Source of the DNA: Trypanosoma brucei
Lineage: Eukaryota
DNA length: 64,000 nt
Reading direction: 5' to 3'
Assembly: GCA_000002445.1 (NCBI GenBank)
Contig: CP000066.1
Location: 128,001-192,000 of the forward strand
The first letter of the stretch is position 1. Every line of letters begins with the position of its first letter. The position numbers were made by a program, and so were the translations under genes. Below are positions 10,289 through 62,122 of the stretch, piece after piece. The notes beneath the pieces are model-generated. The model worked only from the letters and a program-made list of their open reading frames with translations, was not told the origin of the DNA and did not search any database.

Positions 10289-10294
10289 CACACA

Positions 10295-39971: not shown

Positions 39972-40251
39972 ATACAGTCTCCACTCCACTCATCACCACA
40001 AGGGGAGGAGAAAAAAAAATGGAGAAGAAAACACGCACTCGCATGCCGAATGACTCACAACATACACACATACTTTGCAACCCAATGTCTACTGGCCTTA
40101 ATAAGCACATTCACATCAGAAATATATCGGCACATCAGGAGGCAACAAATGTTTTGGATGGTGTAAAAGAAATATTTCCGCATGTTTGTCTAGTGGAATC
40201 ATCCACTTGTCAGCTCAGTCATATTATAAGTTTATTATTGCGTGTAACTTC
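39972..40251. repeat. Copy 1 of a ~270 bp dispersed direct repeat (second copy at 61857-62122), intergenic between the kinase and P450 genes
   Basis: Lining up by eye, atacagtctccactccactcatcaccaca...ggagaagaaaacacgcactcgcatgccgaatgactcacaacatacacaca...gcgtgtaacttc is about 95% identical to 61857-62122, with a few substitutions and two small indels. Both copies have the same orientation. It produces the spurious matching ORF N-termini MEKKTRTRMPNDSQHTH at 40019 and 61890. Confidence 0.85.
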
Positions 40252-40910
40252 TTCACACATTCATATTTTTTCCCCTTTCCTTTTAGAGTTGCCCTTTCGA
40301 AGGTGTTTTTTTTTTTTCACGATATCCGGTCAGTGCACGTTAGTGGTGTTGAAAGGTAAAATAAAAAGCATAAAACGCTTTCTTGTACGCAATCAACGCA
40401 ACAGCTATCATGATGATAACACGTGTTTCCACCGTAACTTGAACCTAAAGAGTTGCGAAAACCAAAAAAAAAAAAAGAAGGAGGAGGAACAATTAAAAAG
40501 CGGGAGTTGCAGTCTTTCACAGCGTAGACAAACGAATATGCACAAAAACAAACATTGTGCTAAACGTAAAAGGCAGTCAGTCACATTTAGGTGGAACACA
40601 AATATCGAAGCATATAAATAGATACTTAATGAACATCGTACAACCCCGAACAACGGTTGCAGTATTCTATGTCAGCTGCGCTAATCATGACAATAGCCTC
40701 CACGTACCAAAGAAGGAGCAAAGGTAAAAACAACAGAGAAAAGGGAGAAAGAAACAAATGAAGAAAGAAGAGGAAGACAAAAAAAGAAAAAGAAAAGAAA
40801 AGAAGAACGATGCCTCTGCGTGGGTGCCATCGCCTTACGAAAGTTCATGCAGCATTGCATATGTAAATATATGTATCTGTATATCAATTTATTTCTTGTG
40901 TGTTCTTTCT

Positions 40911-42662
40911 CTAACTGTTGGAACCTTGGTTGTGCTCCCGGTGCTTCGCTAACAATGCTTTGATAGATGGGGAAACCGCTTGGGACCCGACGGAAGGTCC
41001 TACGCTGGCGAGTGTAGCGGGTGAGTTGCCCTGCGGGTGTGCCTTACCGAGAGAATTGGTATAAGTTTTATTCTCCGACGACTGAAAAGACGAAAGTTTA
41101 TATCGTGTTGAGTTGAGAAGTGTTGCCACCATGCCACCTTCCATTGGTGGGGGTTTGGCAAAATCGACCCCGCTCTTGCGTTGACTACCGGATGATCCAC
41201 AATTGGTAATATCTTTCCCCGGAGTCGCATTGCTTTGAAGTGAAGTGGAGCCGTGCTGCTTCTGCTGAGGATGGAGGCCCAACGTCTTCAACTCCCCGGC
41301 AAAATCGTCTATAAGTCCGTCTAAGTCTAACTCATCATTGTTAGAAGCGGGAGGAGGTTGCGCAACCGTCCTAGAAGGGATTTCTTTGTTATTTGAAGGA
41401 GAAAACTTTCCTGGCTTTGCCTCCGGTGGGAGAGGAGACGTCTTCATATTTGCAAGGGTCGTTTTTACATTTGAACCAAACTTCGGCTGAACGTCGGGTT
41501 TTCGATCGGAGGATTCGTTACTGGGACTGTACGAGTTCTGCTGCGGTACCACCGGTGGACTATTCGATGGACCTCCCGCCTTCGGTACCGCAGTTGTGGC
41601 CCCAACAGGTGGGCGATCCCCTTTTGTATCGGAATTCGGAACAACTGCACCTGACGGGGCGCTTTGCGGTCCGCTAGTGTGTTTCTTCAGTGCCTCTGCC
41701 ATCTGTTTTGGAACATTCGTTGGAGCGAAATTCTCTTCATCAACCCCAACATTAAAGTACGGATGTTGTAAACACTGCTGAGCAGTCGGCCGCCTCTTTG
41801 GGTCGTAATTCAACATTTGCTTCATCAAGTCCATGGCATGCGGTGGTACATGGGGCGGCATGACACGCTCTAAGCCCACACCATTGATGGAAGGAAAATT
41901 GTAACGAATCTTCTTTGCAAGAACCATACCATTGGGCCACACGCTTTCATTGGGTGATCCCAAAACGGCCATTATTTTATGCAGTTGGTCCACCTCGTTG
42001 CTACCCGCAAAGAGCGGGCGGGTGGTTATCATTTCCGCTATTATACAACCCACCGCCCATATGTCTACGGGGGAGCTGTAACATCTGTCTTGCAAAAGTA
42101 ATTCCGGTGCTCGATACCACCGTGTTGAAACATAATCCGTGTAGGGCGGCCGCGCTCGTATTTCCTTAACGAGACCAAAGTCAGCAAGCTTAACTATTTC
42201 CTGTGCGCTAGTGGATGGGTCCTTTCGTACCAGTAAATTTTCCGGTTTCATGTCTCTATGAAAGTACCCAGCGCGGTGTAAATACGCGAGCGACTGCAAA
42301 ATTTGAAATGTATAACTTTTGATTTTGGGGTATGCTAACGCAGGACCACTGGTTCCGGAGCCATAGCTCTGCATCTGTTTGGCTCTCCGAATAACACCCA
42401 GCAAATCCCCATCCATGAATTCAAAAACAAAAAACAATTCATTTTTCTCCCGAATCACCTCCCTCATTTTCACAATGTTGGGGTGGCCGTGCACACGACG
42501 CACAACAACAACCTCCGGGAGTTTCATGCATTCATCCCAGCTGTAATACTTTTGTTTCATTTTTTTAATAGCAACGAACTGACCTGATGACTTGTGCAAT
42601 GCCTTCACTACACACCCGAAGGTTCCATCTCCTAACTGATTGAGAAGTTGGTAGTTCTCCAT
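40911..42662 (-). CDS. Serine/threonine protein kinase of the MAK/ICK/MOK (RCK, LF4-like) family with TDY activation loop and long low-complexity C-terminal tail
   Basis: GDGTFGCV (glycine loop), VAIKKMK, HRDMKPENLL, and DFGLVKEIRARPPYTDYVSTRWYRAPE (TDY motif + APE) are all present. This is the CDK/MAPK-like fold with the TDY loop characteristic of MAK/ICK/LF4 kinases. The roughly 280 aa tail is Ser/Pro/Gln-rich. Confidence 0.9.
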   Translation of the reverse strand: MENYQLLNQLGDGTFGCVVKALHKSSGQFVAIKKMKQKYYSWDECMKLPEVVVVRRVHGHPNIVKMREVIREKNELFFVFEFMDGDLLGVIRRAKQMQSYGSGTSGPALAYPKIKSYTFQILQSLAYLHRAGYFHRDMKPENLLVRKDPSTSAQEIVKLADFGLVKEIRARPPYTDYVSTRWYRAPELLLQDRCYSSPVDIWAVGCIIAEMITTRPLFAGSNEVDQLHKIMAVLGSPNESVWPNGMVLAKKIRYNFPSINGVGLERVMPPHVPPHAMDLMKQMLNYDPKRRPTAQQCLQHPYFNVGVDEENFAPTNVPKQMAEALKKHTSGPQSAPSGAVVPNSDTKGDRPPVGATTAVPKAGGPSNSPPVVPQQNSYSPSNESSDRKPDVQPKFGSNVKTTLANMKTSPLPPEAKPGKFSPSNNKEIPSRTVAQPPPASNNDELDLDGLIDDFAGELKTLGLHPQQKQHGSTSLQSNATPGKDITNCGSSGSQRKSGVDFAKPPPMEGGMVATLLNSTRYKLSSFQSSENKTYTNSLGKAHPQGNSPATLASVGPSVGSQAVSPSIKALLAKHREHNQGSNS

Positions 42663-43014
42663 GCTATTTATTTATGTGTATGGAAAAGTGAGGTGAGTTA
42701 TTTTTGCTTTTGTTCTTTTTGTTCCTTCCCTACTTCCTTCTCCTCCCTCTCTCTCTTTCTTCTCTTTGTTTTTTTTGTTTCTCTCCCTCACACACTTTCT
42801 ATTATTACTTTTTTCTTCCCCCTTCTTTTCTGGTATTCCTCTCCGTATGTGTATGAATAATATAAAGATATAATTATATCGGCGTTTCAAAAGAATTCCT
42901 TTTGCCACACCTTCTTTTTGGCGTCACGGAATGCTATGAAACACACGGCAAATAATATAATTGGCAACCCCCAGTTAATTTTCGCTCCAAGCGATTGTTT
43001 GAGGGATTCCTTAG

Positions 43015-43060
43015 AGAAAAAAAAAGAAAAAGGAAAAAAGAAAATAAAAATCAGTGCAGG
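43015..43060 (-). promoter_or_regulatory. Polypyrimidine tract (minus strand) upstream of the kinase gene
   Basis: The plus strand reads agagaaaaaaaaagaaaaaggaaaaaagaaaataaaaatc, which is a C/T run on the minus strand about 350-400 nt upstream of the kinase ATG, with AG dinucleotides downstream on that strand. Confidence 0.35.
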
Positions 43061-43423
43061 AATATGTATCAGTTGTAAAAAAAAAGTAGAAAATGCATGA
43101 ACGTCACTATCACACAAAACAATAGGTTCTCAACCATATACATAATTATATATGTATATTTTGTTAGCATTTATATGTTTGTTTATGTTTTGAATTAATT
43201 TTTTTTCCACTATATTCTGTTTGGCTCTAAAAATAAAACATTTCCTCATGAATACGCCACACAGAAAAGATAAGAATTTCACCCAAGTAGAAACAAAGAA
43301 GAGAAGAGAAAAGAGGAAAGAGGAGGAGGGACACACACACACACACACAATCATTCCTATAGATGTACATGCAACCCTGTAGCTTAATAAATGTTTCTGA
43401 AACTAAACACACTTGCACATACG

Positions 43424-43427
<4 letters not shown>

Positions 43428-43455
<28 letters not shown>
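43428..43455. repeat. (TA)n microsatellite
   Basis: atatatatatatatatatatatatatatgtatg read directly. Confidence 0.9.
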
Positions 43456-43460
<5 letters not shown>

Positions 43461-43634
43461 AGAATTGGAAAAAAATAACCAGGTAAATAAAGATAATAAT
43501 AATAATAATCATCATCATCGTCACTGAAAAAACAAACAAACAAACAACAAACAACACCGAATTCAACCACCTACGTATCGATCCTCCTACTAATCTAAAT
43601 AATAATAATAATAAATCAAATGCACTCCATAGTT

Positions 43635-43892
43635 TTATGGATGAAGCGAATGCGGATCCGGGGGCCATGCGCCTGCCAAACCTCCATGAGCGCCTGCAAT
43701 CAGTAAAGCACCAAATATAAAATTAGGAATCATATTGCTGATAGTCCACATCCCAAGTACATTAAATTGTGTTACAAAACTCTTTGGTTGATACACGGGT
43801 TTGGGGCCACTGAAATTCAAGGGGACAACACGTCCTTTTCCAATAGGTGCCACAATAGTGGAATATAAAGACGGTACGCTACGGCGTAACAT
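43635..43892 (-). CDS. Candidate small mitochondrial membrane protein (85 aa), hypothetical
   Basis: MLRRSVPSLYSTIVAPIGKGRVVPLNFSGPKPVYQPKSFVTQFNVLGMWTISNMIPNFIFGALLIAGAHGGLAGAWPP starts with an Arg/Ser-rich presequence-like N-terminus and has a Gly-rich transmembrane helix. Composition is not low-complexity. It is co-oriented with the array. Confidence 0.4.
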   Translation of the reverse strand: MLRRSVPSLYSTIVAPIGKGRVVPLNFSGPKPVYQPKSFVTQFNVLGMWTISNMIPNFIFGALLIAGAHGGLAGAWPPDPHSLHP

Positions 43893-44361
43893 ATCACGCA
43901 GCAGAGAGTAGTTCCTTAGAGATTATATTATAATAATATATATTTTTCTTCTCTTTTTTTTTGCTTCTTTTCTTATGCCAACAGATGCATTGCAAAACAA
44001 TAAACAAATAAATAAATGGACAGAAGATAGAAATAGATAAAAATAAAAATAAAAGTAACAAAAAAAAGAGGGGAAAGAAGGAAAAGAAAAGAGATGTAAA
44101 AGTAGTAGAAGCAGCAGAAGGGAGGGAAACTGACTAAGGTGAGTAATTTCTATCACCAATTAACAAATTTTATGTATATTATTGCGAGCGGACCGATCAC
44201 TACCAAATTTGCACATGCATACAGAAAGAGTTCAACCAACAAAGAAAAAAGAACCAAAATGAAAAAAAAATGAAAAAAAAAGAAGAAGAGATGTCAAACT
44301 ATGCGTAACGGAGTTATATGTAAACCCACGCATAATAATTTTCATATCTTTACACAATATA

Positions 44362-46425
44362 CTACACGATGTCGGCGTTACGTGGAGCTACGACTTCTCT
44401 CACTCCCAAAAGTGACTCCATGCCTTCATAAACTGAAGGAAGCACTTGGGAGTAAAATAATGATGCCGTAAGAATCCCAACACCATATGAAACCTCCAAC
44501 TGTACATCCGTACTGCAGAGCATCAATACGAAGAATTGACCCACATAATTTAGCGGTATCTCCACTACACCGACAGAAATGAGAAGAATCAACAACTGCT
44601 GCCAAGCTTTAGGAAAGTCTCGAAGGACATATTCCAAACCAATTAAATTAACACAGAAGGCAATAACAAAATAAAGTCCAAGTACCCAATGATAGAAATG
44701 ATGGAAACTCCACAGAATACCTCCATCAAAGCCTGTAGCAATATACATACAAACTTTGAGGTAATATCCACCAAGACAAAACACAACTAAAATTAAAAAT
44801 AGGCGCATCACGTAAGAAAGAAGAATGCAACAAGTGGGTACGCAAACGGGGTGACGCGCACTGCCATACGGCGACAAGGGAACACACTCAAGTACTAAAG
44901 TATATGGAGTTTTGCACTCAGCGCAAACTCGTCTATGTTCCACATTCGTTGTGGTGTTTCTCCACTTTTCTAAGCATTGCCTGTGGACATACTTTGATGT
45001 GCCATCGCAAGCGCAAGGAGAAAACAAATCCTCAACAGGATCGGTGCACCGGCATATTCGGCACAAATCACCGCTCTCACCATCATCACCATCATCATCA
45101 TCGTCATCAACACTATTATTATTATTATTATTGTTATTCCCATCAGTCCCTTGCGCCAAAGTGCCGCGCGTTCCTCCCTCACGTGTATTACCAGCGCCAA
45201 GTGTTTCCTCATCAGCAGAAATCAAAATAACACCTTCATCTTCTCGAGATCTACGGAACAAACGACGGATACGTTCAAGAAGCGTGCGTAATGTCGGTAA
45301 CAACAACTCAGTCCAAACTTCAACACCGGCTCGACGCAACGCTGCAAGAATTCGAAGAATTGGGAAACACGGGAGGTCATCACCTTCAACTTCCTCAAAA
45401 AGAACGGTACGTTGCCGTCCCTCCAATGGTACAGCCCGCCAAAGTCGCACACCCAACTCTTTTGTACCAATAACAAATGAAAAAAATATACATAAACATC
45501 CACCAAGCAGAAACAGAGATCCGGTAACTGACCCCGTCAACCACATGCGGAAATGAAACGCATCGGCAGGCGTACGTAACACAACCAAAATATCAACTTC
45601 ACATGCCGAGTCGGGTGGTAATGCAGCGGAAATCCGCAGGAGCCATGGCGTATTCCATGAAAGTGGATTATGCGGGTGATGAATAATCCTTCCACTAAAA
45701 CTTTCCAGCGGTATGTTTTTATAACTATCCGTATAGCGGAAACTGCTGGCCTGGACGCATTCATCAATTAATTCATTACAACTTTGAACAGCGTCGTGGC
45801 GCGGTCCTCCACCAAAAAAGGGCAAGTTTGATGATGCCGTACCTTCAATTGGAAATGGAAAGGTTAAATTGCTATTATTACCACCACTACCACCAGTTAC
45901 TGAAATGAAGCGTCGCACAGCTTCTTTATTTGTTGGCCCCAAAACGGAGTCTTTCCGCAATAAAGAAACGAAATGACTTTCCCATCCGCCACGAAATCGT
46001 AGCAGAATCGTGCCACCAAAATGAAGTAAAGAACACGAATCCACTTTGGGTGCTGCATCAGAGGAACTATTAAAAGGTGTGCAGAAGGGAATAAGAAATA
46101 GAAACTTTTTCACCTTCAAAACACGTTTCTCCTCAGTCCCGTAGTTGCTAAAATTAACAATTGCATGCAACGCAAATAAGCGCGCAGGATTCGGTCCCGC
46201 ATAAATGGTGCTACGCAAACCCAAATCTACATTACGCCACGTCGTAATGGAGAGAGTTTCGTTAAGTTTCGCATCGAAAAGAGCTAAAGACGGTTGAAAA
46301 GCAGCATCCGCAACACCTGCAACCGCACATACGGCAACAACAATAAAATATAAGAGCATTTCCCACAGGATGGGAGGGAGGAGAAAAAAAAAAACGATTG
46401 TTGAAATCCTTGCGAATTCGTACAC
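44362..46425 (-). CDS. Multi-pass membrane protein with RING-CH (MARCH-type) zinc finger; putative E3 ubiquitin ligase
   Basis: CRICRCTDPVEDLFSPCACDGTSKYVHRQCLEKWRN...CAECKTPY has the C4HC3 RING-variant spacing of MARCH/RING-CH proteins. A poly-Asn/poly-Asp acidic linker (NNNNNNNNSVDDDDDDGDDGESGD) precedes it, and at least four C-terminal transmembrane helices follow. An N-terminal signal/TM (MLLYFIVVAVCAVAGVADA) plus a large luminal domain comes before the RING. 687 aa from the first ATG; the true start may be the internal MLLYF. Confidence 0.75.
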   Translation of the reverse strand: MYEFARISTIVFFFLLPPILWEMLLYFIVVAVCAVAGVADAAFQPSLALFDAKLNETLSITTWRNVDLGLRSTIYAGPNPARLFALHAIVNFSNYGTEEKRVLKVKKFLFLIPFCTPFNSSSDAAPKVDSCSLLHFGGTILLRFRGGWESHFVSLLRKDSVLGPTNKEAVRRFISVTGGSGGNNSNLTFPFPIEGTASSNLPFFGGGPRHDAVQSCNELIDECVQASSFRYTDSYKNIPLESFSGRIIHHPHNPLSWNTPWLLRISAALPPDSACEVDILVVLRTPADAFHFRMWLTGSVTGSLFLLGGCLCIFFSFVIGTKELGVRLWRAVPLEGRQRTVLFEEVEGDDLPCFPILRILAALRRAGVEVWTELLLPTLRTLLERIRRLFRRSREDEGVILISADEETLGAGNTREGGTRGTLAQGTDGNNNNNNNNSVDDDDDDGDDGESGDLCRICRCTDPVEDLFSPCACDGTSKYVHRQCLEKWRNTTTNVEHRRVCAECKTPYTLVLECVPLSPYGSARHPVCVPTCCILLSYVMRLFLILVVFCLGGYYLKVCMYIATGFDGGILWSFHHFYHWVLGLYFVIAFCVNLIGLEYVLRDFPKAWQQLLILLISVGVVEIPLNYVGQFFVLMLCSTDVQLEVSYGVGILTASLFYSQVLPSVYEGMESLLGVREVVAPRNADIV

Positions 46426-46514
46426 AAATTTGTAAATGTAGAGATATGAGAAGTTTGAAGGAGAGAAAAAATAAAATAGAGAAAATAAAATGCACGAGAT
46501 ATGTAATCCAAAGC

Positions 46515-46545
46515 ACAGACACAGACAGACAGACAGACAGACACA

Positions 46546-46578
<33 letters not shown>

Positions 46579-46580
46579 GT
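46515..46580. repeat. Compound (CAGA)n-(TA)n microsatellite
   Basis: cacagacacagacagacagacagacagacacatatatgtatatatatatatatatatatatatat read directly. A similar (CAGA)n(CA)n occurs at 39553-39582. Confidence 0.9.
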
Positions 46581-48665
46581 TTGAGGGTATAAATATATAT
46601 ATTATTTTCCTTAAAGAAAAAGAAAAGAAAAATGCAAGTCAGCTGCACCCAACACGGGAGTTTACGCAGAAGCCACAAAAAAAAAATTGTTTGATTCACC
46701 TCCAGAAGAGAAAGGAAGAGAGACAAATAAAATTAAAATAAAGAAGAACTGCAGCGCGCATCCCTCCTATGGGTTTCAAACACATGAAATAACTAATAAA
46801 ATCAACACCCATGACCGCAATTTCCATCCTTTTGAGAATAAATACCGCCATGAGTTGATGTAAAGTCGCATTTGCCCGCCAGATTCAACAGGAAGTCGCA
46901 AAATATTGGGGGAAAAAGGCAAAAAAAAAGAGAAGAAACCTGCGCCAAAAAGTCGCGTCAACATCTTCAACTTTTTTTTTTGACATCATCTTCTCCCACA
47001 TTTCCTCCCTTTCCTTTTGGTTTTTTTTTTTCAGGCACACAAATGCGTGAGGTACGCGGCGTCACCGTGTGAGCGGGAGTAATAAAAATAAAAATAAATT
47101 CATTTCCCTTTAATTTTGACATGCAAATGTAAATAATACCTTCAGTACTGTATGAGAGATATTCCCAGCTACCAATTCATCATGTTCTACCAATACGGTA
47201 GTTGATGATAATTAATATCCATTTCATAAACTAAAGCTTGAAATAATTAAGAGGAGGGCCAAATTCTCCCTTCCTTCCTTCCTTCCTTCCCCACCCTCTT
47301 ATTCTTATTATTCTTCTTCTTCTCATCCTCCTCCCCCTTCTTCATTAATCAAAAAAAAAGAAAAAGGTAGGAAAAAAAGAAGAAAAAAAGAAAAGAAGAA
47401 AAATAAAACCAGAAATGCTGCAGAAGTTATGGTACAAGAAGTGCAAACAAACACAAATTGTATGAAGACAAGGGAGAGAGAGAGAGGGGGGGGGAGGGGG
47501 GTGATAATTAGAAAAAAAAGAGGGGAAGAAGAAGAAGAAAAAAAAAAGCAACAGAAGGAGTGAAATAGGAACACTCATCAGCATGCATTCATCGACATGT
47601 TCTTCAGTACGAACCACCAGGGAAATCTTGCTTTTTTTCTTTTTTTTTTGTGTTCGTGTTCGTGTTCGTGTTTGTGTGTGTTTGTTTTTTTTTTAAATCT
47701 TTTTTTGTTTTTTTTGTCTTCTTTTTCTTGTTGATTATGGTCCCTAAATATATATATGAAAATATATACTAATAATAATAATGATGGTGATAATGATAAT
47801 AATAATAATAGTAACAAAAACAAATATACGACAAAAAGAGGGGGGAAATAAAAAGAAAAGAAAAAAAACATGAAACTGTTCTCCTGCAGGCACACTCACA
47901 TACACAAACACACTAACAAACTTTTTTTATTCTTTTTTTTTTTTTAAAAGTCGTTTCAGTCGTTTCATCCTTTCTCCCTTTTTTTCCCCTTAAAACAAAA
48001 AACAAAAAATTTAACATTGTTTAATTCTTTTTCTTTTTCTTGTGATTTTCTTGTGAATTTGTTTTGTTTTTTTTGTGTGTTTTCCCTCATTTTATATTTT
48101 AAGTAACATTTCATTGAATTTGGAAAAAAAAAAATTCCCTTTTCCCCATCATCTCCGTTTCCTCACCTCTCATTATTATTATTATTATTTTCTTTTTTTT
48201 TTTCCTTCCCTCCCTCCCTCCTTCCCTCCCTTTTTCTTCCTCTTCCTCTTCTTTTTTTTTAAAAAAAATTTCTCTCTTTTGTTTTCATGTTTCGAGGGGC
48301 ATACGTGCCCACACTTTTCTCCTCTTTTTTTTTTCCACTTAACTTTCCTCTCCCATTTTTTTTTCTTTTTTTTTCTTTCCTTTTTTTTTCACTTTTTTCT
48401 CCCTGTACTTTTTTCTTTTCTTCTTTTTTTTTTCTTCTCAAAATCGTATATCTTTGTTGTTGTTGATGAAAGAAGGAGGAAGCATCACACAAAAAACAAA
48501 AAAAAAACAAAAAAATTTCAAGAATGAAAGAGGAAAAAAAAAGTAAAAGTAAAAGTAAAAGTAAAAAAAACAAAGAAAAGAAAGAACAACTTTCGGTGTT
48601 TCTAAAACTGAACTTCCCACAACGACAACCCGCCATTTATTTTTCTCTTTTTTTTTTTTTGCTTC

Positions 48666-48712
48666 TCTCTTTCTTTCTTTCTTTCTTTCTTTCTTTTCTT
48701 TCTTTCTTTTTT
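48666..48712. repeat. (TTTC)n tetranucleotide repeat inside a 2.3 kb low-complexity spacer (46426-48778)
   Basis: ctttctttctttctttctttctttcttttctttctttc read directly. The surrounding 2.3 kb is almost entirely homopolymer and simple-repeat sequence. Confidence 0.9.
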
Positions 48713-48778
48713 TTCCTTCAAGTGTATTTCTTCCCAAGTCGTACGGAACAGTTGTAAGAGCTCAAAAATAACGTTGCA

Positions 48779-49171
48779 TTATGCCATGGGCGGAACATCA
48801 TGTCCCACCTGTTGCATTTGCGAAGAATCCGGTCCGACAGAAGCCCGTAATTCACCAGGCCCATGCGCAAAAGCACATCTGTCACCCCAACTGCATTCTC
48901 CATTCTTTTCCCAATAAATACACATTTTAGTTTTGCGTTTCCCCTGATCAATACCATTACGACCACCACGGCCACCACGACCGCCACGATTCCCACCAGC
49001 TACCATCACCGGATCATAATATCCGCCAAACGAATAGCCGACAGTTTCTGGTAAATTCCAATGCGTTGTCTTAGTATTATGATCCAAATAATAAGGCTGT
49101 CCATTTGCGGTGTATGCTATTTGCCAACCTGCTGGAAGAAGAGGCGGATTTACTGCAAAATAGCCCTGCAT
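48779..49171 (-). CDS. ZFP3: Small WW-domain + CCCH zinc-finger RNA-binding protein (TbZFP2/ZFP3-like), with RGG box
   Basis: 130 aa. LPAGWQIAYTANGQPYYLDHNTKTTHWNLP is a WW domain with both conserved W residues and the YY/HNT core. GGRGGRGGRNG is an RGG box. CIYWEKNGECSWGDRCAFAH fits C-x8-C-x5-C-x3-H. This size and architecture match the ZFP2/ZFP3 pair of T. brucei. The symbol is assigned from memory of ZFP3 being about 130 aa and lying near a P450 on chromosome 3; it is not verified. Confidence 0.8.
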   Translation of the reverse strand: MQGYFAVNPPLLPAGWQIAYTANGQPYYLDHNTKTTHWNLPETVGYSFGGYYDPVMVAGGNRGGRGGRGGRNGIDQGKRKTKMCIYWEKNGECSWGDRCAFAHGPGELRASVGPDSSQMQQVGHDVPPMA

Positions 49172-52969: not shown

Positions 52970-53710
52970 TCAATGTAACCCAGTTTGTAGAATGGCACAT
53001 GTGAGTTGACGGGCCACATCCTCCGGTGAGGTTTTCAATGGAAGCGCTAATGTCGGTGGCAAGTTATACTCTAAAAACGGTTCCGGTGGCCTGTACTTTG
53101 GTGGTGAGGCTTTCGCAGTTGTCGTGGGAATTTGGTACGGCACACCCACCATAAGATGAGCTTGTGTTTTGCCCTTCGAACTAATTATTTGCCTATTACC
53201 TCCTGGTGTGAGGCCTACCAGTAGCGAAGATGTTGTGGTTGCCGCCCCACCATTCACCTGCACTGTTCCTGTTGTATTGTTGCTCGCTGCTAGAGGTATT
53301 GTTTTCTGGGCATTATGTACGTTGGGATTGAGGATGTAGCCGTAGCCATTTACATCTAAGTGGCGTTCGTCGGGTAACTCATGGAGATATTGGCACTGCG
53401 CCCCGCGGAGACACCCACCATTAACATAATATTTGCATAGTTCTTGCGACCGCTCATGCGTAGAAGCGGTGGTTGGCATTGGTACGGTAGTTGCACCGCC
53501 CATACCATTTGTGCTGCCTGAAAGCAACACTGAAGGTGATCCAGAAGCCAAATAAGGGTAGCTATTAGTACCTGCAGTTGCAGTTGCAGGTGAAGCGCCT
53601 CCAGTAAGTGTGGCAGCACCGCGCCCATTAGGATTTGTGCTACCTGTTTGTGTTCCCCCGCCGGGAGTAAGTACATTGGGACTCCACAAGGCGGTATCCC
53701 GTTGCATCAT
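52970..53710 (-). CDS. CCCH-type zinc finger protein (single C-x7-C-x5-C-x3-H finger) with Thr/Gly/Ala-rich low-complexity flanks
   Basis: CKYYVNGGCLRGAQCQYLH fits the CCCH spacing. The rest is Gly/Thr/Ala/Ser/Pro/Asn-rich, as is typical of kinetoplastid ZC3H RNA-binding proteins. 246 aa. Confidence 0.7.
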   Translation of the reverse strand: MMQRDTALWSPNVLTPGGGTQTGSTNPNGRGAATLTGGASPATATAGTNSYPYLASGSPSVLLSGSTNGMGGATTVPMPTTASTHERSQELCKYYVNGGCLRGAQCQYLHELPDERHLDVNGYGYILNPNVHNAQKTIPLAASNNTTGTVQVNGGAATTTSSLLVGLTPGGNRQIISSKGKTQAHLMVGVPYQIPTTTAKASPPKYRPPEPFLEYNLPPTLALPLKTSPEDVARQLTCAILQTGLH

Positions 53711-54418
53711 TGCGTACTAGTCCCGCAGTATACTTTTTATGTTCCCACTTCTTACTTATATCCCTTCCTCCAACAACACCAACAAAAAAAAATATCTCGT
53801 CTCCTCCTCCCCCTCTTTTTCCACACTCCTTTTATTCCCTTCCCTTCCCTTTTGGTCTTGTTTTTTTTTTATTTCCTCTTCTTCCTCCTCTGCACTCTGA
53901 CTGCGTTCGCACTCCCCCGTCCCTTCCACTGCAAACTCCAGCCGAGTGCAATTCCGTCAATTCAATCCAACCTATTTTTAATTCCTCCTCTTCACTTTAC
54001 TTCCCCTCTTTACACGCCTATCAAAGGCACACGTCACCTTCGACCTAATTCGGCTCACTTTTTTTTGTTTTCAGAATTAAAAAAGGAAAAAGAAAGGAAG
54101 GAACCAAAGGCGAATACCAGATTTTAAAATAACGCAACTCAAATAAGGCGCGGTGTGCGAACCTGGACAGTCTGTGGGAGAAATAAAAGAAGGGAGGGGG
54201 GAAATAACCCGGAAACGGTGTCGGGTGTCCAAAGCATCAATTGAGGCGATATCCAAATGGCCAACAACAACAGCAGCACATACACACGACCCGTTAGAGA
54301 CAGATAGACAAATTATAAGAAAAGAAAAAAAACAAAGAAGGGGATCACGAAACGATAACTGAACATATGTGTAACAGAACCCACAAGAAGCAGGGAGATA
54401 ATGAAAGTAAGCGGCATC

Positions 54419-55423
54419 TCATACGCCACGCTGCTTGTTCTGCACGCGACGCACATTGACAGAGCGGAGGTACGCCACCATTGGTATCAGTACTACAACG
54501 AAAAGAAACATCACAGCGCCGATCCCCCGACTCTTGCATCTAACGCAAGTGCACTCAAAACCCCACCGCTTTTTCATAGCTAACGCCAACCGCGAGAGTG
54601 GCATTGTATTACCCGGCATATAGTCGATAAAAAGTTCCTCACCTTCACGTACTGGTCTAATTGTACGGGCGCTCAAGTAAAAGTTAGACTTTAGGTTATT
54701 ATACGTGATGGTGACCTCCACATTGGGTTGACACTGATGATTGAAATACTGTGCCTCTGGGAACAGACAAATGCCACGACGCCCTCTGTACTCCACATCG
54801 TACCTATTGAACTCAACTATCAGAGGTAACTTCTGTAAATCATAAGAGGAGAATTCACCACTGAGAAGGTAACTCGCTCCATTTTTCAACACGCCCTCAG
54901 GCCCAGGCACACGAACCTCTTCAGCGAATTCAAACACATCCCTCTCACGTGTAAAATATGAATAACCCCCCGACATGAGTGTTGCTACTCGGTGCTTAAT
55001 GTAATGCTGCTCCTCCGGCGTCCCCAGCACAAGCTTGGAAAAAATCTGTTTAGTAACGACAAGTACTTGATCTCGAAGGGACTGATTGCTGCTGTCGGAA
55101 ATGTACATGACAAATGCGGGGATATTCATAATTTCGCGACCATACCCAATTTCACGGCGAGCAAATACGCCTCGTGCATAGGCACCACCAATGTTGGGAT
55201 TGATGTCAATTTTAACATCCTTCGTCACAAAACCGTCATTGGGGGAGTCAATTGTTCCTTGAATGGGCGAGACCCGCGCAAAGAAACGCGCCGCCGTGGA
55301 AAGAGGCGATGTGACTAATGGAACCTTCGGAGAGAATGTTACATGTACGCAGCGAAGCGCAGCCGAGCATTGCCCGCCCACAGCAGGGGAAAAGAGGAAC
55401 TGTTGTTGACCCCGCAGCCGCAT
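54419..55423 (-). CDS. SET-domain protein (putative lysine methyltransferase) with C-terminal transmembrane segment
   Basis: FNHQCQPNVEVT (the NHxCxPN motif), EGEELFIDY (the GEELxxxY motif), and post-SET-like cysteines GFECTCVRC are present, followed by a hydrophobic C-terminus MFLFVVVLIPMVAYL. 334 aa from the first ATG. Confidence 0.75.
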   Translation of the reverse strand: MRLRGQQQFLFSPAVGGQCSAALRCVHVTFSPKVPLVTSPLSTAARFFARVSPIQGTIDSPNDGFVTKDVKIDINPNIGGAYARGVFARREIGYGREIMNIPAFVMYISDSSNQSLRDQVLVVTKQIFSKLVLGTPEEQHYIKHRVATLMSGGYSYFTRERDVFEFAEEVRVPGPEGVLKNGASYLLSGEFSSYDLQKLPLIVEFNRYDVEYRGRRGICLFPEAQYFNHQCQPNVEVTITYNNLKSNFYLSARTIRPVREGEELFIDYMPGNTMPLSRLALAMKKRWGFECTCVRCKSRGIGAVMFLFVVVLIPMVAYLRSVNVRRVQNKQRGV

Positions 55424-55810
55424 GCTTTATGAAAAACAGCCAGTTCTTACTAGTTTATACACGCCCAAATACACGCACGCACATACGCAAAGAGAGATAT
55501 ATAGAGGAAGAAAATAAGTGGAGACCATAATTGCAATAGAGGAAAAAGGTAATGCCACGAAGCAGTAATAAAAACAGAGCAGTTTTGATGCATGACCAAC
55601 AGTCAGCTATATCATCTTAGTGTCTGACTGGATGAACAGAGCCAGTCACACCGGTTAAGTAGTTGAGTGGTCGAAGTTTAGTACTTTTAATCAGCAATTC
55701 ACAGGCATTGAAATTTTATCGTCGAAGGGTCGCGCCCCCGTAAGCCCCCCCCCCAAAAGAAAAGGTTGGAGCATCTCTTCCCTCTTTTCCCCTATGGGTT
55801 GTGTACGAAC

Positions 55811-57463
55811 TTAAGAGGCTCGGAGAATGACAGCAGTATTGTGCTCCAGTATGCACATTGTAAGGGGTCTATCCTTCGGCCTAAGAAGAAAACTGCATTC
55901 TCTGGAATTTCCGCTCCGTTTGTCATTGCTGCCACCATCTGCACCACTCGTAGCCCTCCTTGTTACCTTGGATGGAAAGAGTCTACTGAGCTGCCGCTGG
56001 TACAGTATTTCCACAGTAGTACCATCTAGTATAAGCAGTGCGCCGCTCTCCAGAAGCACGCATAGTGTGTGAGGAAGAAGACAATCAAATATGGCAATGT
56101 CACCAATAGGAATGTCCTCACTGCAGTGTGTTTGAGGCCCGGGTTCCAGCGTTAACGTTGGAGAGTCCATTTCACCTTGGGATGGAGATTCAACCTTCTG
56201 TGTCTTCAGTGGTGGTTCCTCAGAACTCGTTGGTTCGTTCTTATGCAGCGATGAGTGCACGGCGAATTGCACAATAATGTTCTCATCCACAACCACGGCA
56301 AGAAGACCTGTTGGGCGTGAACAGTTTGACGTCCCCGATGTGACAGTTGCAGAAACGGCGGAAGGAGTCGAAGTGGAAGTTCGCGACGCGGGAGCTCCCT
56401 GGAAAGAAGGAGGAGATGCAACCGCTTTCACCACTCGTCCTGGACGCAGGTCTTCAGCACTACTAAACATAACCGATTGAGCAATAGTTGACAGCGCTAC
56501 ATCCATTAAACACACAGTACCGTCCGACCACACGACAAGAATAACACTTTCTTCATCATCCCACCAAGTTACACATAATAACTCCGTTGTTGTATCGCCA
56601 TTTGGGGGTAGTACTTTGGTCCATTGCTTCTCAACAGCATAAACACCGTTTGCGTCGTTCTCTTGACGCTTCAGCACGCACAGGAACGTGGTGTATATCA
56701 ACCCCGCTCTCGAGCCAGCTGTGTTGCTGAACGCTGTCGGGTTGCGAGTGGGGGGACCTGTTGAAGTTGCTAACACGATGATGCGTGAACCCTGTTGGCT
56801 GAACCTTATGCTGAAGGTTTTCCACGAGCCTCTGTCAGACAGGTCCGTATCTGCGGGAAGTTTGATGGCCCGGCATACATTAGAAGCCTTCAAACTGTGG
56901 GAACGTGCACGACTTATTGTGACAGCGTCTATGGTAAATGTACACACAAAGCCATCCACCACAGTACACAGTAACGAAATCACCTCACTGTCTGCCACAG
57001 TTGGTTGCCCCGCCACCTGTTTTGTTGCCGTAACCTCCCTCTTTGGTTTTTGTTGCAGAGGAAAACAGTCGATAGCAACCAACCTGTCCCGCTGCGTGTC
57101 ATGCTGCGGTGTAGTTTCCTTCCGGCCTGCCCTCTCCTTCTCGCGGCGATGCAAAGAGTCATCTTCGAATAAGTATGTTTTTGCGAAATTCGATGTATTG
57201 ATAACACAAACAACACCATCTTCTAGCGCGCAAAAAAGATACGGTGCCAGTGCGGTGGTGACGGAAGGCGTTGTATCGCACGGGCACTGGCCCCGTGACC
57301 AACAGCAATCTACAACCGCAATGCTTGAAGAGACAGACGACGAAGTCACACGGCGCTGGACGTCCTCACGCAGGTTACGTTGAAGAGCGTTTTTTGTTAG
57401 GCGCTGCCGGTGTGCATGAGCTTCTGTGGTCCACTCCCGCCTCCATTCGCTTAAAACTGACAT
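55811..57463 (-). CDS. Hypothetical protein (550 aa)
   Basis: Long co-oriented ORF with complex composition. WD/beta-propeller-like motifs (SDGTVCLMDV) are possible but not confirmed. The antisense ORF 56688-57383 is judged spurious. Confidence 0.6.
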   Translation of the reverse strand: MSVLSEWRREWTTEAHAHRQRLTKNALQRNLREDVQRRVTSSSVSSSIAVVDCCWSRGQCPCDTTPSVTTALAPYLFCALEDGVVCVINTSNFAKTYLFEDDSLHRREKERAGRKETTPQHDTQRDRLVAIDCFPLQQKPKREVTATKQVAGQPTVADSEVISLLCTVVDGFVCTFTIDAVTISRARSHSLKASNVCRAIKLPADTDLSDRGSWKTFSIRFSQQGSRIIVLATSTGPPTRNPTAFSNTAGSRAGLIYTTFLCVLKRQENDANGVYAVEKQWTKVLPPNGDTTTELLCVTWWDDEESVILVVWSDGTVCLMDVALSTIAQSVMFSSAEDLRPGRVVKAVASPPSFQGAPASRTSTSTPSAVSATVTSGTSNCSRPTGLLAVVVDENIIVQFAVHSSLHKNEPTSSEEPPLKTQKVESPSQGEMDSPTLTLEPGPQTHCSEDIPIGDIAIFDCLLPHTLCVLLESGALLILDGTTVEILYQRQLSRLFPSKVTRRATSGADGGSNDKRSGNSRECSFLLRPKDRPLTMCILEHNTAVILRAS

Positions 57464-57885
57464 GACGTGTTCCGACAGAAAAATACCCTCCTAAAGAAAG
57501 ATAACCACGTGGCAAGAAAGTGAAGTTGAAAAAGCCGTGACAACCTCGTTACATGGGATGTGTGTGTGGGGGGGGGGGAGGAAGGAGAGAAAAGGGATAC
57601 CGACTGTCCGGTCCAAGGGAAGACTTTGCGAGGTGCAACACAAAATTTGAGTAGCACAAGACATACCCAAAAGATAGGGAGGCGACGAAATGGGCAAACG
57701 ATCGCAGCACCACTGAAGTTACCCCAACTCTGAGTTGCAGGGCACTTTTCCACACAACAAACTTTTGTAAAGCCCCTCCCCCCCCAGAAATTTCGTACAT
57801 TTCAAGCATCGGAGAGGCATAAACACACAACCAACATATAATTTCTCTCAGACACACCAACGCACACCACAGCGGACCGTTCCTA

Positions 57886-58431
57886 CTAATCCTCCTCCTC
57901 CTCCGTTGCATCGGGAATAGGCTCCCATCCAGACGGTGGGTTCTTTGCTCCAGAGGAACACAACACCTTAAAACGGTTGCCCGATAGCTTTCTGTCGTTA
58001 CGCTGAGCCTTGTTGATATCCTTATGCATCCTGTAGGTAGACGGTAGTGATGTCCCATGCACAGTCATATCGTAGAGATATTTTCCATACATAGCATTGT
58101 CCTCGTTGGGAATGTCACGACGGGCAAACAGTTCATAGTGAGTGTTATTAGGAAGCCGCTTTTTCATGATATAATCCGGAAGGTTCTGCCCATATCCCGG
58201 CCGCATGTCCCTCATCGGGTACCCTGTGAAGGTTTTAAACTCTGGCGACATGGAGCGTTCATCCTCTAACTGCCACGCGCCGGGTGCCTTCTCCTCAATA
58301 TATTCCTGAAAGATACGGGCGCGTGCGAGCCGCAGATCCCATCGTTGCGCACATGGGACAGGAAGCGTACTCGGGTGAGTATAGCCAACACGGTGCACGC
58401 CAAGTAGCGGGAACCACCTGCGCAACACCAT
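57886..58431 (-). CDS. Hypothetical protein (181 aa) with presequence-like N-terminus, possibly mitochondrial
   Basis: The N-terminus MVLRRWFPLLGVHRVGY is amphipathic and Arg-rich. The C-terminus ends in an acidic EEEED tail. The mitochondrial assignment is inference only. Confidence 0.5.
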   Translation of the reverse strand: MVLRRWFPLLGVHRVGYTHPSTLPVPCAQRWDLRLARARIFQEYIEEKAPGAWQLEDERSMSPEFKTFTGYPMRDMRPGYGQNLPDYIMKKRLPNNTHYELFARRDIPNEDNAMYGKYLYDMTVHGTSLPSTYRMHKDINKAQRNDRKLSGNRFKVLCSSGAKNPPSGWEPIPDATEEEED

Positions 58432-59244
58432 CTATATCTACTCTGCTAGCCTCCGCTGACTGCAACGGAGGTGCAGGTACGCTTACTGCTCCACGTGCAG
58501 CACCAATACGACAAAAAAGAAAAGAAATGCATGTGAAAAGAGGGGAAAACGACGGCGGCATCCACCGCGACAAACGGAAAGAAGGGAGAATGGCAAGTTC
58601 CTTGTACAGGTGCGGGATTGCAGGGTTCAACTCAAATCTACATCTTTCTACTCGGTCATGAAACAGCAGTTTACACACTCACACCGCAAGGATGGGGGCC
58701 AAGAGACCGAACGTTTGTCGCTGTATCAGATTTGATAAACTTAACAAATGGCTAGTAATCTCACGACAATCCGTGACATATCCCGTGCCCTTAGTTGTCG
58801 AACCTCTAAGAAACCCCCGTCAATTCAGGCGGGGTCTCCAGTAAGACCCAACAAGTTTGAAACCAGGGAAAACTTCATCTCACCACTACCACTGAACTTG
58901 TGTAAAAACATATATCTTCCTGAAAGTAAACAAAATGAAGCGAAAGCTGTTTCAGGAACACAATTGACGACTGTGGTACTACAATAGTGTCAAATGAGAT
59001 TAAAGTAGAAACAGACCAACGTTGCTCTCACGTATGTCAACTGCATGACGTGCAGGTAACAAAAAATAGTAAGAAAAATATACCTCCCTTAACACAAACA
59101 TAAACACACAAAACGCGAATGGGCGGAAAGAAGAAAAACGAGCAATGTCCTGACTAAATTCCGTGCAAGAGCATGGAGTCATTCACAACCCTCTGCACGC
59201 GATTTCCTTTACCATTTCACAGTTGCATTTCTCACCTTTCCACA

Positions 59245-59958
59245 CTATGATGCGGGGGTTGGATGCGGTACCATTTCCTTCGGCACATGCACGAAGGTGC
59301 GATCGGACTTGTCGCACACCCATGCCACCTCCACCTCATAAATTTTATCTTTCGACTTGTCATGCACCTCATGGAGGATGTTGGTTAGCTTTTCCACCGC
59401 CTCACTGCATGTCAGAGTCGCAAAGTCCAGCTTCTCCAACTCGGTTTTGGCCACCGTTTTGCCCTTCCCCAACGCTATTCCATAGTACCCCGCAACTGCC
59501 CCGCTCGGGTCGGCGACATAAAGCTGCGGGCCATCGTCAGCATAAGAGGCAATGATGACCGAACAGCCGAAGGGGCGATAGGCGTAGTGAGTCGTGTAAA
59601 CATGCATAAACTCGCCGATTCGAGACGCAAGCAAGGAGCCTAGTATCGGTGTGGAAAAAATATCTCGACTGTTCTCTGCTTCACCACGAGCGCGTGAAAC
59701 AACAGCAAGACCATCGGGGAGCACTCCACAAACACAAATTCCGGCCTGCCGATCTACCGCATGAATACGGTTATTGGACCCTTCCTCCAGCATGCGGCTT
59801 GTGAGGATTTTCTCCACAGCAACGACAACACCGTCCTTGCAACAGGCAGCAACGGCGGTGCTGCCATTGTCGACAGCCTTGCAGGCGTACTCTACCTGAA
59901 ACACACGCCCGTCAGCAGAAAATATATCTGTTGACTGGTCATGACCAGAGCCAGACAT
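59245..59958 (-). CDS. PSMA3: 20S proteasome alpha-type subunit, PSMA3/alpha-7 (PRE10) type
   Basis: [38 protein letters not shown]...[51 protein letters not shown] aligns closely with human PSMA3 as I remember it ([38 protein letters not shown]...RPFGCSFMLGSY...GAQLYMIDPSG...GCAIGKARQAAKTEIEKL). Confidence 0.9.
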   Translation of the reverse strand: [237 protein letters not shown]

Positions 59959-60228
59959 TGTCCTCCCTTATATCTCCTCTTGCCTTGATTTACTTTCTCC
60001 TTTTCTTGTGGATGACCTCGATACCTATATCGTCCTTTCCTTCAGTATTTTTCTTCTAAGCAACGAAAGTTAGGCGTTTCGAAATTACATACGAAAGGAA
60101 GGGGATACAGGCAATGAAGTAGGGACGCTACACAGCTTTGCGTGGGAAAAGAAAAGTAGATATCAGTCGCCCTCAGCCTCCTTGGCACACGTACAGGCTA
60201 CAAACCATCACATTATACTGTCGAGCCG

Positions 60229-61299
60229 CTAGCGCTTCCATAACCGCAGAGCGCACACGCTCGCCGCAACTAATGCTACAGGAATCACGGTAATCATGAG
60301 TGACTTACGCAACATCCCACCATCATCACTGACCTCCTTCCTCGACGCTTTCCCCGGCCGGCACTTCTCTAGGTTCAAACGCAGTGTGTGTTCCCCCAGC
60401 TCCTCAGGGTTCTTCCACGACGCACCAGCTTTTGGAGGCGCCGGTAACTTGTTTAAACCTCCCCCTACGGCAAACACGTCCACAATTCGCTCATGGAGGT
60501 TGGCATTGGTATCAGGAGCCCCAGATGTCATCGGGGTGTGCGAAAACATGCACATATCACCATCAGGACACGTCCCCAAAACATGTGGAACACAGTAGAT
60601 AATCTTCTTGTGTTTAGCCCTAATTATGCTTCGAATTCTATGTCTAATACGCGCAACTTCAGCGGTCCCCCCTGGATCAACCACGCCTCCGTTGGCTTCA
60701 AAGTTACTCTGATTGAACTGACATGCTACATCAATCTCGTCTAATACCTCTTCAGCAACAAGTGTATCGTCCAAAATGATCGTCCGCACGTACGGGTTTA
60801 CATGTGCAAGTGCTGCAAGTGAGTGACCGGCTTCACTCTCTAAGGGAGTGTTGGAAAGGTCAATGAAACTAACCCGGGACTTGGTCAGCGCTTCGCAAAG
60901 CATAGAAACGGCATCATCACTCACATTCACAGCATTTATCGTTATTGCCTCCAATGACATATTGTATTGCACAACAACAGAGATTAGGTACATCTCAACA
61001 TCACCAAAGCTAGAGCCAAACTCACCAAACACCATGACCGCACGGGTATTGTTATTTAAAATTTCCGACGCAAGAATGTGCAAGTCATCCACACCAGCCC
61101 TGATGTACCCGCTGTTATGCCGCGCAAAATAAGAAAGAACACGCTCCAGCTCCCCCAACGTGGGTGTACTGTCAACTGCTCCGCCTACGCAGCGATCGAT
61201 TAGCAGGCGAATGTCTGATATGTCAACTGGCTTGGGGCCAAGCACTTCCGACACCGTCCGCTGAGCGCCAAGCACCCGGGGCTGCCGCCGCTCGGCCAT
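60229..61299 (-). CDS. Leucine-rich-repeat (RNI-like) protein with embedded CCCH zinc finger and C-terminal TM
   Basis: LRR-like segments (LSNTPLESEAGHSLAALAHVNPYVRTIILDDT...) are followed by CVPHVLGTCPDGDMCMFSH, which fits C-x7-C-x5-C-x3-H. The protein ends in a hydrophobic helix VIPVALVAASVCALRLW. 356 aa. Confidence 0.7.
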   Translation of the reverse strand: MAERRQPRVLGAQRTVSEVLGPKPVDISDIRLLIDRCVGGAVDSTPTLGELERVLSYFARHNSGYIRAGVDDLHILASEILNNNTRAVMVFGEFGSSFGDVEMYLISVVVQYNMSLEAITINAVNVSDDAVSMLCEALTKSRVSFIDLSNTPLESEAGHSLAALAHVNPYVRTIILDDTLVAEEVLDEIDVACQFNQSNFEANGGVVDPGGTAEVARIRHRIRSIIRAKHKKIIYCVPHVLGTCPDGDMCMFSHTPMTSGAPDTNANLHERIVDVFAVGGGLNKLPAPPKAGASWKNPEELGEHTLRLNLEKCRPGKASRKEVSDDGGMLRKSLMITVIPVALVAASVCALRLWKR

Positions 61300-61856
61300 C
61301 CTGGCAGCAAATACACAAATCCCCTAATCCTTCCAGTTACTTACCGGAAGGGATATCAGAAGGTGCGAAATGGAAACAAAAATGTAAAGGAAAGTGAGGC
61401 ATGGAAAGACAAGGACGTTTAAACGAGGATCCAACGGGTGCAGCTTTCTCCTCACACCATACGCGGTTAGCGCCTCCTCCCCTTCCCCGTACAAAATCGA
61501 AAGAGATATGGGAAGACAACCAAACCGGTACGACCAAATGCCCAAAACATACGGACTCACAAGCACCCACTCAACAAAGATGTGCAACGGCCAACGCGCA
61601 AAGAACACCAAACAAACAGGAAAGAGAAGAATGATCATATCTCAAATGCACTCTCAGAAGAACAACACAGTCATTCTACTTGAGAGAAATTTGCAGTTTG
61701 GCGAATTGTGACGGCAAACGCCCGTAGAAACTGAAGTGGCACAAGTAACCTGCCTCGTGATCCGCCAAAACCGGAACGCATTTTGGGGTAATAAGTTACA
61801 CTTCATCCACACACACACACACACACACCAAAACAGTTTGTCCACCATACAGTCTC

Positions 61857-62122
61857 CACTCCACTCATCACCACAAGAGGAGGGAAAAAATGGAGAAGAA
61901 AACACGCACTCGCATGCCGAATGACTCACAACATACACACACACTTTGCAACCCAATGTCTACTAGCCTTAATAAGCACATTCACATCAGAAATATATCG
62001 GCACATCAGGAGGCAACAAATGTTTTGGATGGTGTAAAAGGAATATTTCCGCATGTTTGTCTAGCGGGATCATCCACTTGTCAGCTCAGTCATATTATAA
62101 GTTTATTATTGCGTGTAACTTC
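61857..62122. repeat. Copy 2 of the ~270 bp dispersed direct repeat (copy 1 at 39972-40251), intergenic between the VIT and LRR-CCCH genes, immediately after a (CA)n run
   Basis: See copy 1. Same orientation, about 95% identity. Preceded by acacacacacacacacc. Confidence 0.85.

Follow-up and report, generated by a model that had tools for sequence, protein, structure and literature searches.

Mobile elements known in trypanosomatids are retroelements only; T. brucei possesses 10 TbSIDER1 and 12 TbSIDER2 copies, about 570 bp long and diverging by about 16% from their consensus, and the SIDERs of Leishmania modulate mRNA fate (Bringaud et al. 2011, PMC3820030). Almost all gene-specific regulation in polycistronic units is held by the 3' untranslated regions (3'UTRs). 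Insertions of RIME and ingi are accompanied by target-site duplications of 12 bp. Here we describe a non-coding repeat of Trypanosoma brucei chromosome 3, detected in a stretch of 64,000 nucleotides of strain TREU927 ("the window"; GenBank assembly GCA_000002445.1, contig CP000066.1, positions 128,001 to 192,000) and present in at least three copies, A and B inside the window and C beyond its high end. The repeat looks like a young passenger duplication in mRNA tails and resembles neither a hidden gene for a small RNA nor any mobile element already known. With moderate confidence we regard it as a young, low-copy duplication of 3'UTR or intergenic sequence, belonging to the T. brucei lineage as far as tested, which would travel as a passive passenger in untranslated RNA and serve no dedicated function.

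Copies of the repeat and their boundaries

Window coordinates are converted into chromosome 3 coordinates (Tb927_03_v4) by adding 128,000. This offset is taken from the coding sequence positions of Tb927.3.690 (170662-168911) and Tb927.3.780 (187958-187245) in the tables of Kolev et al., which equal the open reading frames (ORFs) 42662-40911 and 59958-59245 of the window.

Copy A comprises a core of 280 nt (39972-40251, minus strand), delimited by alignment and blastn to copy B and common to all three copies. Copy B (61847-62122, minus strand, from alignment and blastn) consists of the core only, 276 nt long in TREU927, with orthologues at positions 9175-9454 of the T. b. equiperdum locus (GCA_003543875.1, L002) and 9175-9455 of the T. 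b. gambiense DAL972 locus (L003), both taken as the ZC3H6 gene with 10-kb flanks. A and B are direct repeats that differ by 7 substitutions and two indels of 1 nt and 5 nt (T-run) in the MAFFT and blastn alignments, i.e. they are about 97.5% identical on aligned bases and 96% with gaps counted (blastn, E = 1e-130). The pair is the sole direct repeat of at least 60 nt recovered by the repeat finder within the 64-kb window. An earlier reading made from the window alone (the sequence-only reading) had described two copies of about 270 bp, in the same orientation and about 95% identical. Orientation and identity are confirmed and the coordinates of A hold, but B, given as starting at 61857, runs 10 nt further to 61847, and the count of two is right inside the window only.

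Copy C is located 5.3 kb past the high end of the window, at 3855-4273 of L002 and L003 and 11211-11629 of L007, equivalent to window positions 67,028-67,446, in the same orientation as A and B. It lies between Tb927.3.840 (388 amino acids) and the FEN1/XPG gene Tb927.3.830, starts 43 nt after the stop of Tb927.3.840, ends about 115 nt before the start of FEN1 and makes up nearly the whole intergenic region between the two genes. A and C have a unit of 422 nt in common with 98-99% identity (39866-40287 in A, minus strand; 98.6% to L002 3855-4273 and 97.9% to L003 3854-4272). This unit is composed of a purine-rich 5' extension of 36 nt, the 280-nt core and a T-rich 3' extension of 106 nt. T. 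b. equiperdum IVM-t1 (L009) and T. b. gambiense (L010) both have a full-length copy A at the corresponding position.

All long ORFs between 24.5 and 64 kb are on the minus strand. Copy A is situated between the stop of the protein kinase gene Tb927.3.690 (40911-42662) and the cytochrome P450 gene Tb927.3.680 (ORF 37709-39481, ATG at 39463), and copy B between the stop of the VIT-family gene Tb927.3.800 (62449-63303) and ZC3H6 (Tb927.3.790, 60229-61299), which encodes an LRR/CCCH protein. ORFs and Pfam matches thereby agree with the gene context of the sequence-only reading, as does the location of the repeat outside any retroposon ORF.

When the copies are turned into a search profile, neither degenerate nor additional copies emerge from the window, the other T. 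brucei loci or the 10 kb of L007 that lie upstream of Tb927.3.840. The window and L007, up to the divergent strand switch, contain exactly three copies, all inside 27.5 kb of one transcription unit of about 52 kb. Two contigs of T. equiperdum OVI (GCA_001457755.2) break in the repeat, at L001 1-32 (copy B) and L004 8894-9046 (copy A), which is the behaviour expected of a repeat collapsed by a short-read assembler. An exact 41-mer of the element has no match in the JGI metagenomes, and six 23-25-mers have none in a full-text literature search.

Both edges of A and B are sharp: identity is at background level a few bases away. The 6-bp direct repeat GTGGAC (sense) encloses copy B, one half 2 nt upstream (62125-62130, minus strand) and the other 1 nt downstream (61840-61845, minus strand). 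Such a flanking repeat is expected by chance at about 1% of random window positions and was noticed after the fact; it is a hint that copy B may have been inserted into an existing spacer via a short duplication or microhomology. A (GT)n microsatellite is present at 61808-61830 (minus strand), about 20 nt downstream of copy B.

Transcripts that carry the copies

Transcript ends are those of the genome-wide spliced-leader and poly(A) site mapping of Kolev et al. 2010 (PMC2936537), a single procyclic data set, in which reads over the repeat may map to several places. The copies are transcribed within the polycistron and end up in untranslated RNA, copy A in the novel transcript Tb3.NT.9, copy C in the 3'UTR of Tb927.3.840 and copy B most likely in the 3'UTR of the VIT gene; the untranslated location proposed in the sequence-only reading is thus upheld.

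Tb3.NT.9 (39860-40444, minus strand; chr3 168444-167860; Tables S7, S12 and S13 of PMC2936537) is a spliced-leader trans-spliced and polyadenylated RNA of 584 nt. Its first 157 nt are unique, the complete extended copy A makes up its 3'-terminal 72%, and the RNA ends 6 nt beyond the repeat. The polypyrimidine tract and AG of its splice acceptor are found at 40445-40500 (minus strand), the sequence reading …CTTCTTTTTTTTTTTTTGGTTTTCGCAACTCTTTAG up to the splice point and then G, with 40444 as the first transcribed base; the splice site, chr3 168444, has a dispersion of 0 in Table S12. The last column of Table S7 gives 1.72 for this transcript, taken here as RNAs per cell. Tb3.NT.9 is in none of the lists of Kolev et al. 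for conserved ORFs, peptide matches or lack of an ORF of at least 25 amino acids (PMC2936537). A mapped spliced-leader site together with a poly(A) site outside annotated ORFs, by which that study defines novel transcripts, exists at copy A only; its tables give no separate transcript for B or C.

The short-form 3'UTR of the kinase Tb927.3.690 occupies 40578-40910 (minus strand; mRNA end chr3 168578, Table S3), and the gene is listed with an alternative 3'UTR. Genes of this category give rise to two ORF-containing mRNAs, one of them full-length and the other shorter, and to a putatively non-coding RNA from within the UTR (PMC2936537). Tb3.NT.9 would fit among these UTR-internal by-products of alternative processing, and copy A is possibly also contained in a long 3'UTR isoform of the kinase. 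A copy-specific spacer (39817-39865, minus strand, from Table S12 and the sequence) connects the end of the repeat and of Tb3.NT.9 with the major splice acceptor of P450 (39817; chr3 167817 in Table S12, with a 5'UTR of 354 nt), 49 nt past the repeat. In the P450 5'UTR spacer (39440-39865) strains differ almost only in microsatellite and T-run length, and the 8-nt unit GTTAGTTT occurs there in two copies in TREU927.

The splice acceptor of ZC3H6 is at 61339 (minus strand; Table S12), giving a 5'UTR of 40 nt, and copy B, 508 nt upstream of this site, is outside that 5'UTR. As no separate transcript is listed between VIT and ZC3H6 either, the 3'UTR of VIT is the most likely place of copy B. The FEN1 splice site is at chr3 194942, and the mRNA of Tb927.3.840 measures 1595 nt from its splice site 196578. 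By this length copy C is entirely inside the 3'UTR, and the mRNA is estimated to end 4-43 nt after the copy; the 422 nt of copy C are nearly the whole 3'UTR of the gene. That 72% of Tb3.NT.9 is sequence repeated in two other UTRs of one transcription unit appears to be unreported in the literature searched; the main text of Kolev et al. does not contain the word "repeat" (PMC2936537).

The idea that the core supplies the downstream gene with a splice acceptor through its 3'-terminal polypyrimidine tract and AGs was rejected, as the mapped sites are elsewhere (P450 at 39817, ZC3H6 at 61339, FEN1 about 190 nt past the core). The purine-rich 5' extension at 40262-40291 is 73% complementary to the core 3' polypyrimidine tract (39991-40021), about 245 nt away and likewise of low complexity. 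The core pyrimidine tract is furthermore predicted to pair with a downstream GAGUGGAGUGGAGA, a pairing that could mask the tract as a splice signal.

The RNA built mainly of copy A is trans-spliced independently, polyadenylated and without a coding signal (Table S7 value as above), and UGAUGA-like and CUGA motifs occur on the sense strand of the repeat. These features would suit a family of non-coding RNA (ncRNA) genes, either with a small nucleolar RNA (snoRNA)-like molecule excised from the core or with Tb3.NT.9 as a functional long non-coding RNA (lncRNA) whose repeat would act in trans on the two mRNAs sharing it. We consider such a family quite improbable. The whole window has no Rfam match at gathering score; permissive matches at 39800-40480 all have E >= 1.5 and reach 12-17 bits, against gathering scores of 40-200. 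No tRNA is predicted by ARAGORN. A C/D box snoRNA has RUGAUGA near its 5' end and CUGA near its 3' end, 50-140 nt apart, and a terminal stem. The sense strand of the 422-nt unit possesses a single RUGAUGA at position 292, downstream of every CUGA (70, 75, 150 and 169), and no C-then-D pair in range; the antisense strand has neither box. Folding of A sense, A antisense and B sense gives z-scores of -1.5, -0.76 and -1.4 against dinucleotide shuffles. RNAalifold on eight sequences recovers compensatory change in 0 of 83 predicted pairs (covariation term +0.52), a weak test with only about 12 variable columns, and a putative hairpin at core positions 45-60 is struck by both B-specific and C-specific substitutions. 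The Leishmania-conserved structured-RNA (fRNA) predictions of Mao et al. 2009 include none on chromosome 3 within 128-196 kb. Tb3.NT.9 itself fits the common class of UTR-internal by-products, and the absence of separate transcripts at B and C points the same way. A snoRNA was rejected on these results and another structured ncRNA is improbable, Rfam, ARAGORN, single-sequence folding, RNAalifold and the C/D box scan all being negative. The boxes that the sequence-only reading had noticed do exist, in the wrong order, and the snoRNA-like gene it had suggested finds no support.

Hidden coding sequence was rejected likewise. A sense-strand ORF of 42 amino acids is altered at two residues in B and interrupted by a stop in copy C of gambiense. 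On the plus strand, antisense to the genes, an ATG-initiated ORF of 200 amino acids (40019-40621) overlaps copy A; in every copy its frame runs through the element without a stop, with 5 amino-acid replacements between A and B. Its repeat-encoded part has no match among 5.8 billion predicted proteins, a search that also revealed no additional genomic copies by way of wrongly called ORFs, and the changes between copies are all amino-acid-changing. The antisense ORF appears to be spurious.

Divergence, exchange and origin

In the core, A differs from C, and from B of strains other than TREU927, by 3-4 substitutions, and B from C by 6-10. Paralogues are thus 1-2.5% divergent, with 3-10 substitutions in 280 nt. 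In the alignment of eight sequences the B-specific states at columns 91 and 94 are common to TREU927, equiperdum and gambiense, and the C-specific state at column 83 to both strains read (equiperdum and gambiense). Copy-specific substitutions that are common to strains make the copies older than the split of the T. brucei subspecies, although not by much.

Between strains, locus B has 3 substitutions in 276 nt of the element against 1-2 in 872 nt of its flanks, and locus A has 1-3 in 420 nt against 2-4 in 617 nt of the 5' flank; surplus differences in the 3' flank of A are microsatellite misalignment. The element is no better conserved than its flanks, and its high identity is therefore not evidence of purifying selection. 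The sequence-only reading had left the choice between recent transposition and selective constraint, of which the youth of the copies stands and the constraint finds no support.

Columns 118, 217 and 269 are mosaic: A shares the state of B within equiperdum and within gambiense, and that of C in TREU927. At column 118 the state shared by A and B is strain-specific. Judged by these columns, ectopic gene conversion between A and B across 21.9 kb would be the simplest account.

No similar sequence is found in the Tb927.3.840-FEN1 and VIT-ZC3H6 regions of T. theileri (L008), nor in the partial loci of T. vivax and T. grayi; among these outgroups the syntenic sites are those of T. theileri, and the T. 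vivax contig extends to 563 nt upstream of ZC3H6. T. theileri (L008 16836-18299) and T. grayi (L006 8407-9804) possess an extra gene of 465-487 amino acids between VIT and ZC3H6, 46% identical to each other. It leaves no tblastn trace in the 1149-nt T. brucei spacer (61300-62448) or in the rest of the window. Copy B as a remnant of this gene was rejected on that ground, and the same result provides no empty-site evidence for copy B.

Under the reading of a passive duplication, the copies would have been made at the DNA level and not by retroposition, by ectopic recombination or templated repair, for example. Copy B would be an insertion flanked by a 6-bp duplication or by microhomology. High identity would reflect recency and occasional gene conversion, not purifying selection, and the element would be without dedicated function. 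At A the T-rich 3' extension stops 6 nt short of the poly(A) site of Tb3.NT.9, and at C its distance to the mRNA end is estimated at 4-43 nt; a passive contribution to the context of poly(A) sites and polypyrimidine tracts is therefore probable.

The same ends, together with the sharp boundaries, the 6-bp direct repeat around B and the contig breaks of T. equiperdum, would also be expected of an undescribed or degenerate mobile element, be it a non-autonomous retroposon or the 3' end of an mRNA copied by way of RNA, with many more copies elsewhere. This explanation we hold to be improbable. Four TbSIDER1 sequences and one of TvSIDER1, each with the 5' hallmark (supplement of PMC4035085), have no similarity to the element, the window or L001-L006 in blastn and nhmmer beyond matches of A/T runs (best E = 0.28), and the SIDER1 profile has no match in L007-L008. 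A Pr77-type 5' signature (77-79 nt) is not found by means of the SIDER1 sequences, which compare RIME and ingi indirectly. Neither the core nor the 422-nt unit has an A-rich tail at either end on either strand, or terminal inverted repeats joining its ends; the only long inverted pair is the low-complexity purine/pyrimidine match internal to copy A. There is no 12-bp target-site duplication, A and C having no flanking direct repeat and B only that of 6 bp. All three known copies are within 27.5 kb, and their divergence is far from the roughly 16% of TbSIDER copies from consensus, in a group where only retroelements are known (PMC3820030). SIDER and RIME were rejected by the lack of similarity to TbSIDER1 and TvSIDER1 (RIME and ingi by the indirect comparison), and a miniature inverted-repeat transposable element or other DNA transposon by the lack of terminal inverted repeats. 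The edge of a RIME, ingi or SIDER copy, which the sequence-only reading had named as the finding that would speak against its own proposal, is not what blastn and profile comparison with SIDER1 indicate.

The main rival is a shared cis-regulatory 3'UTR module, in which an RNA-binding protein would recognise the core and confer a common stability, translation or stage profile on Tb927.3.840, on VIT (Tb927.3.800) and on the long-form kinase or Tb3.NT.9 RNAs, the duplication having spread a useful segment. On the sequence evidence this is unlikely. Every copy is sense-oriented and in untranslated RNA (most likely so for B), but three out of three in the same orientation is a 1-in-4 chance event. 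In the core 72 consecutive positions are invariant in 8 of 8 sequences, but conservation between strains is no higher than in the flanking spacer, and the hairpin at core positions 45-60 carries the B- and C-specific substitutions mentioned above. The boundary of the repeat is near the mature RNA 3' end at A and C, and the 3' extension of these two copies includes a UAUUUUUU motif, presumably of RBP10 type; B is without the extension bearing this U-rich motif. The module is absent at the syntenic sites of T. theileri, the functions of the host genes are unrelated, and no paper linking them turned up. Still less probable than the ncRNA family, in our estimation, is a combination in which the core would be a T. 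brucei-specific functional RNA module spreading at the DNA level, with Tb3.NT.9 not as a by-product of processing but as an lncRNA that, through the 280-420 nt it has in common with the tails of the Tb927.3.840 and VIT mRNAs, competes for or delivers a shared RNA-binding factor. If true, the expression of an acidocalcisome iron transporter, of the kinase locus and of a protein of unknown function would be coupled.

Several points weigh against a passive duplication. A single feature is poorly explained by this reading: at A and C the 3' boundary of the repeat falls close to the 3' end of the RNA, as would also be expected if the copies had originated through RNA or if the mature RNA were under selection. 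The constraint comparison has little power at about 1% divergence, and the mosaic sites are all in slippage-prone runs, where recurrent mutation is a live alternative that could mimic gene conversion. The copy count covers about 79 kb of T. brucei chromosome 3 with three clustered copies, so that a larger family may exist. Copy C was read from the gambiense and equiperdum loci, TREU927, the strain of the window, not being among them, and the outgroup test, by which lineage specificity holds as far as tested, draws on T. theileri, T. vivax and T. grayi, outgroups more distant than T. congolense. That the element would have no dedicated function is a judgement from sequence features.

If the duplication is passive, it accounts for one of the 1,114 RNAs catalogued as "novel transcripts" in T. 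brucei, and the repeat accounts for broken contigs in short-read assemblies. Ambiguous mapping is possible for reads from 72% of Tb3.NT.9 and from the entire 3'UTR of Tb927.3.840, and designs for 3'UTR reporters, RNA interference or CRISPR on these UTRs should allow for two other near-identical copies. The locus would be a small, clean case of non-retroposon UTR duplication, probably with gene conversion too, within a polycistronic unit. Such a result is mostly housekeeping, but useful; it would gain greater weight only if the shared sequence confers common regulation.

Neighbouring sequence and comparison with known systems

ZC3H6 of the window has 356 amino acids, is 99% identical to T. equiperdum ZC3H6 and clusters with the TREU927 and gambiense proteins. 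Upstream of the kinase, a RING-variant gene (44362-46425, minus strand) encodes 687 amino acids in the window. Its counterparts have 665 amino acids in OVI (L004 2827-4824), 730 in gambiense (L010 7332-9524) and 191 in IVM-t1 (L009 8352-8927), a spread that suggests disagreement on the start codon, or a frameshift in one assembly. The first 18,900 positions of the window contain no ORF of at least 200 amino acids on either strand, and none of its nine ORFs of 110-151 amino acids reaches the curated Pfam cut-off. For this region Kolev 2010 (PMC2936537) nevertheless lists six novel transcripts, all long, trans-spliced and polyadenylated, Tb3.NT.1-3 on the minus strand (842-8660) and Tb3.NT.4-6 on the plus strand (12298-18964), around a divergent strand-switch region with a (CA)23 run at 10289-10335.

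SIDERs (Leishmania SIDER1 and SIDER2; TbSIDER1, TbSIDER2 and TSIDER1) are, like the present element, short non-coding repeats mainly in 3'UTRs and intergenic parts of polycistrons. The element differs by the lack of similarity to TbSIDER1 and TvSIDER1, of a Pr77-type hallmark and of an A-rich tail, by its length (280-422 nt against about 570 nt), by the clustering of its known copies where SIDERs are dispersed, and by copies only 1-2.5% apart against about 16% from consensus for TbSIDER1. RIME resembles it as a non-coding repeat of a few hundred bp with low divergence. The 5' signature, A-rich 3' tail and target-site duplications of RIME and ingi are all missing from the element, a comparison made by hallmarks and not with a RIME sequence. 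With the C/D box snoRNA genes of trypanosomatids the element has in common UGAUGA-like and CUGA motifs on the transcribed strand and an intergenic position in a polycistron. It differs from them in box order, in having no terminal stem and no Rfam match, in its location outside a snoRNA cluster and in showing no cross-species conservation where testable. From low-copy segmental duplications with ectopic gene conversion the element differs in that its unit is without a gene and situated between unrelated genes instead of in a tandem array, and in that copy B is partial (core only) and flanked by a 6-bp repeat. It resembles them in its few, nearby copies on one chromosome, directly oriented and with sharp boundaries, and in paralogues that share variants mosaically within strains.

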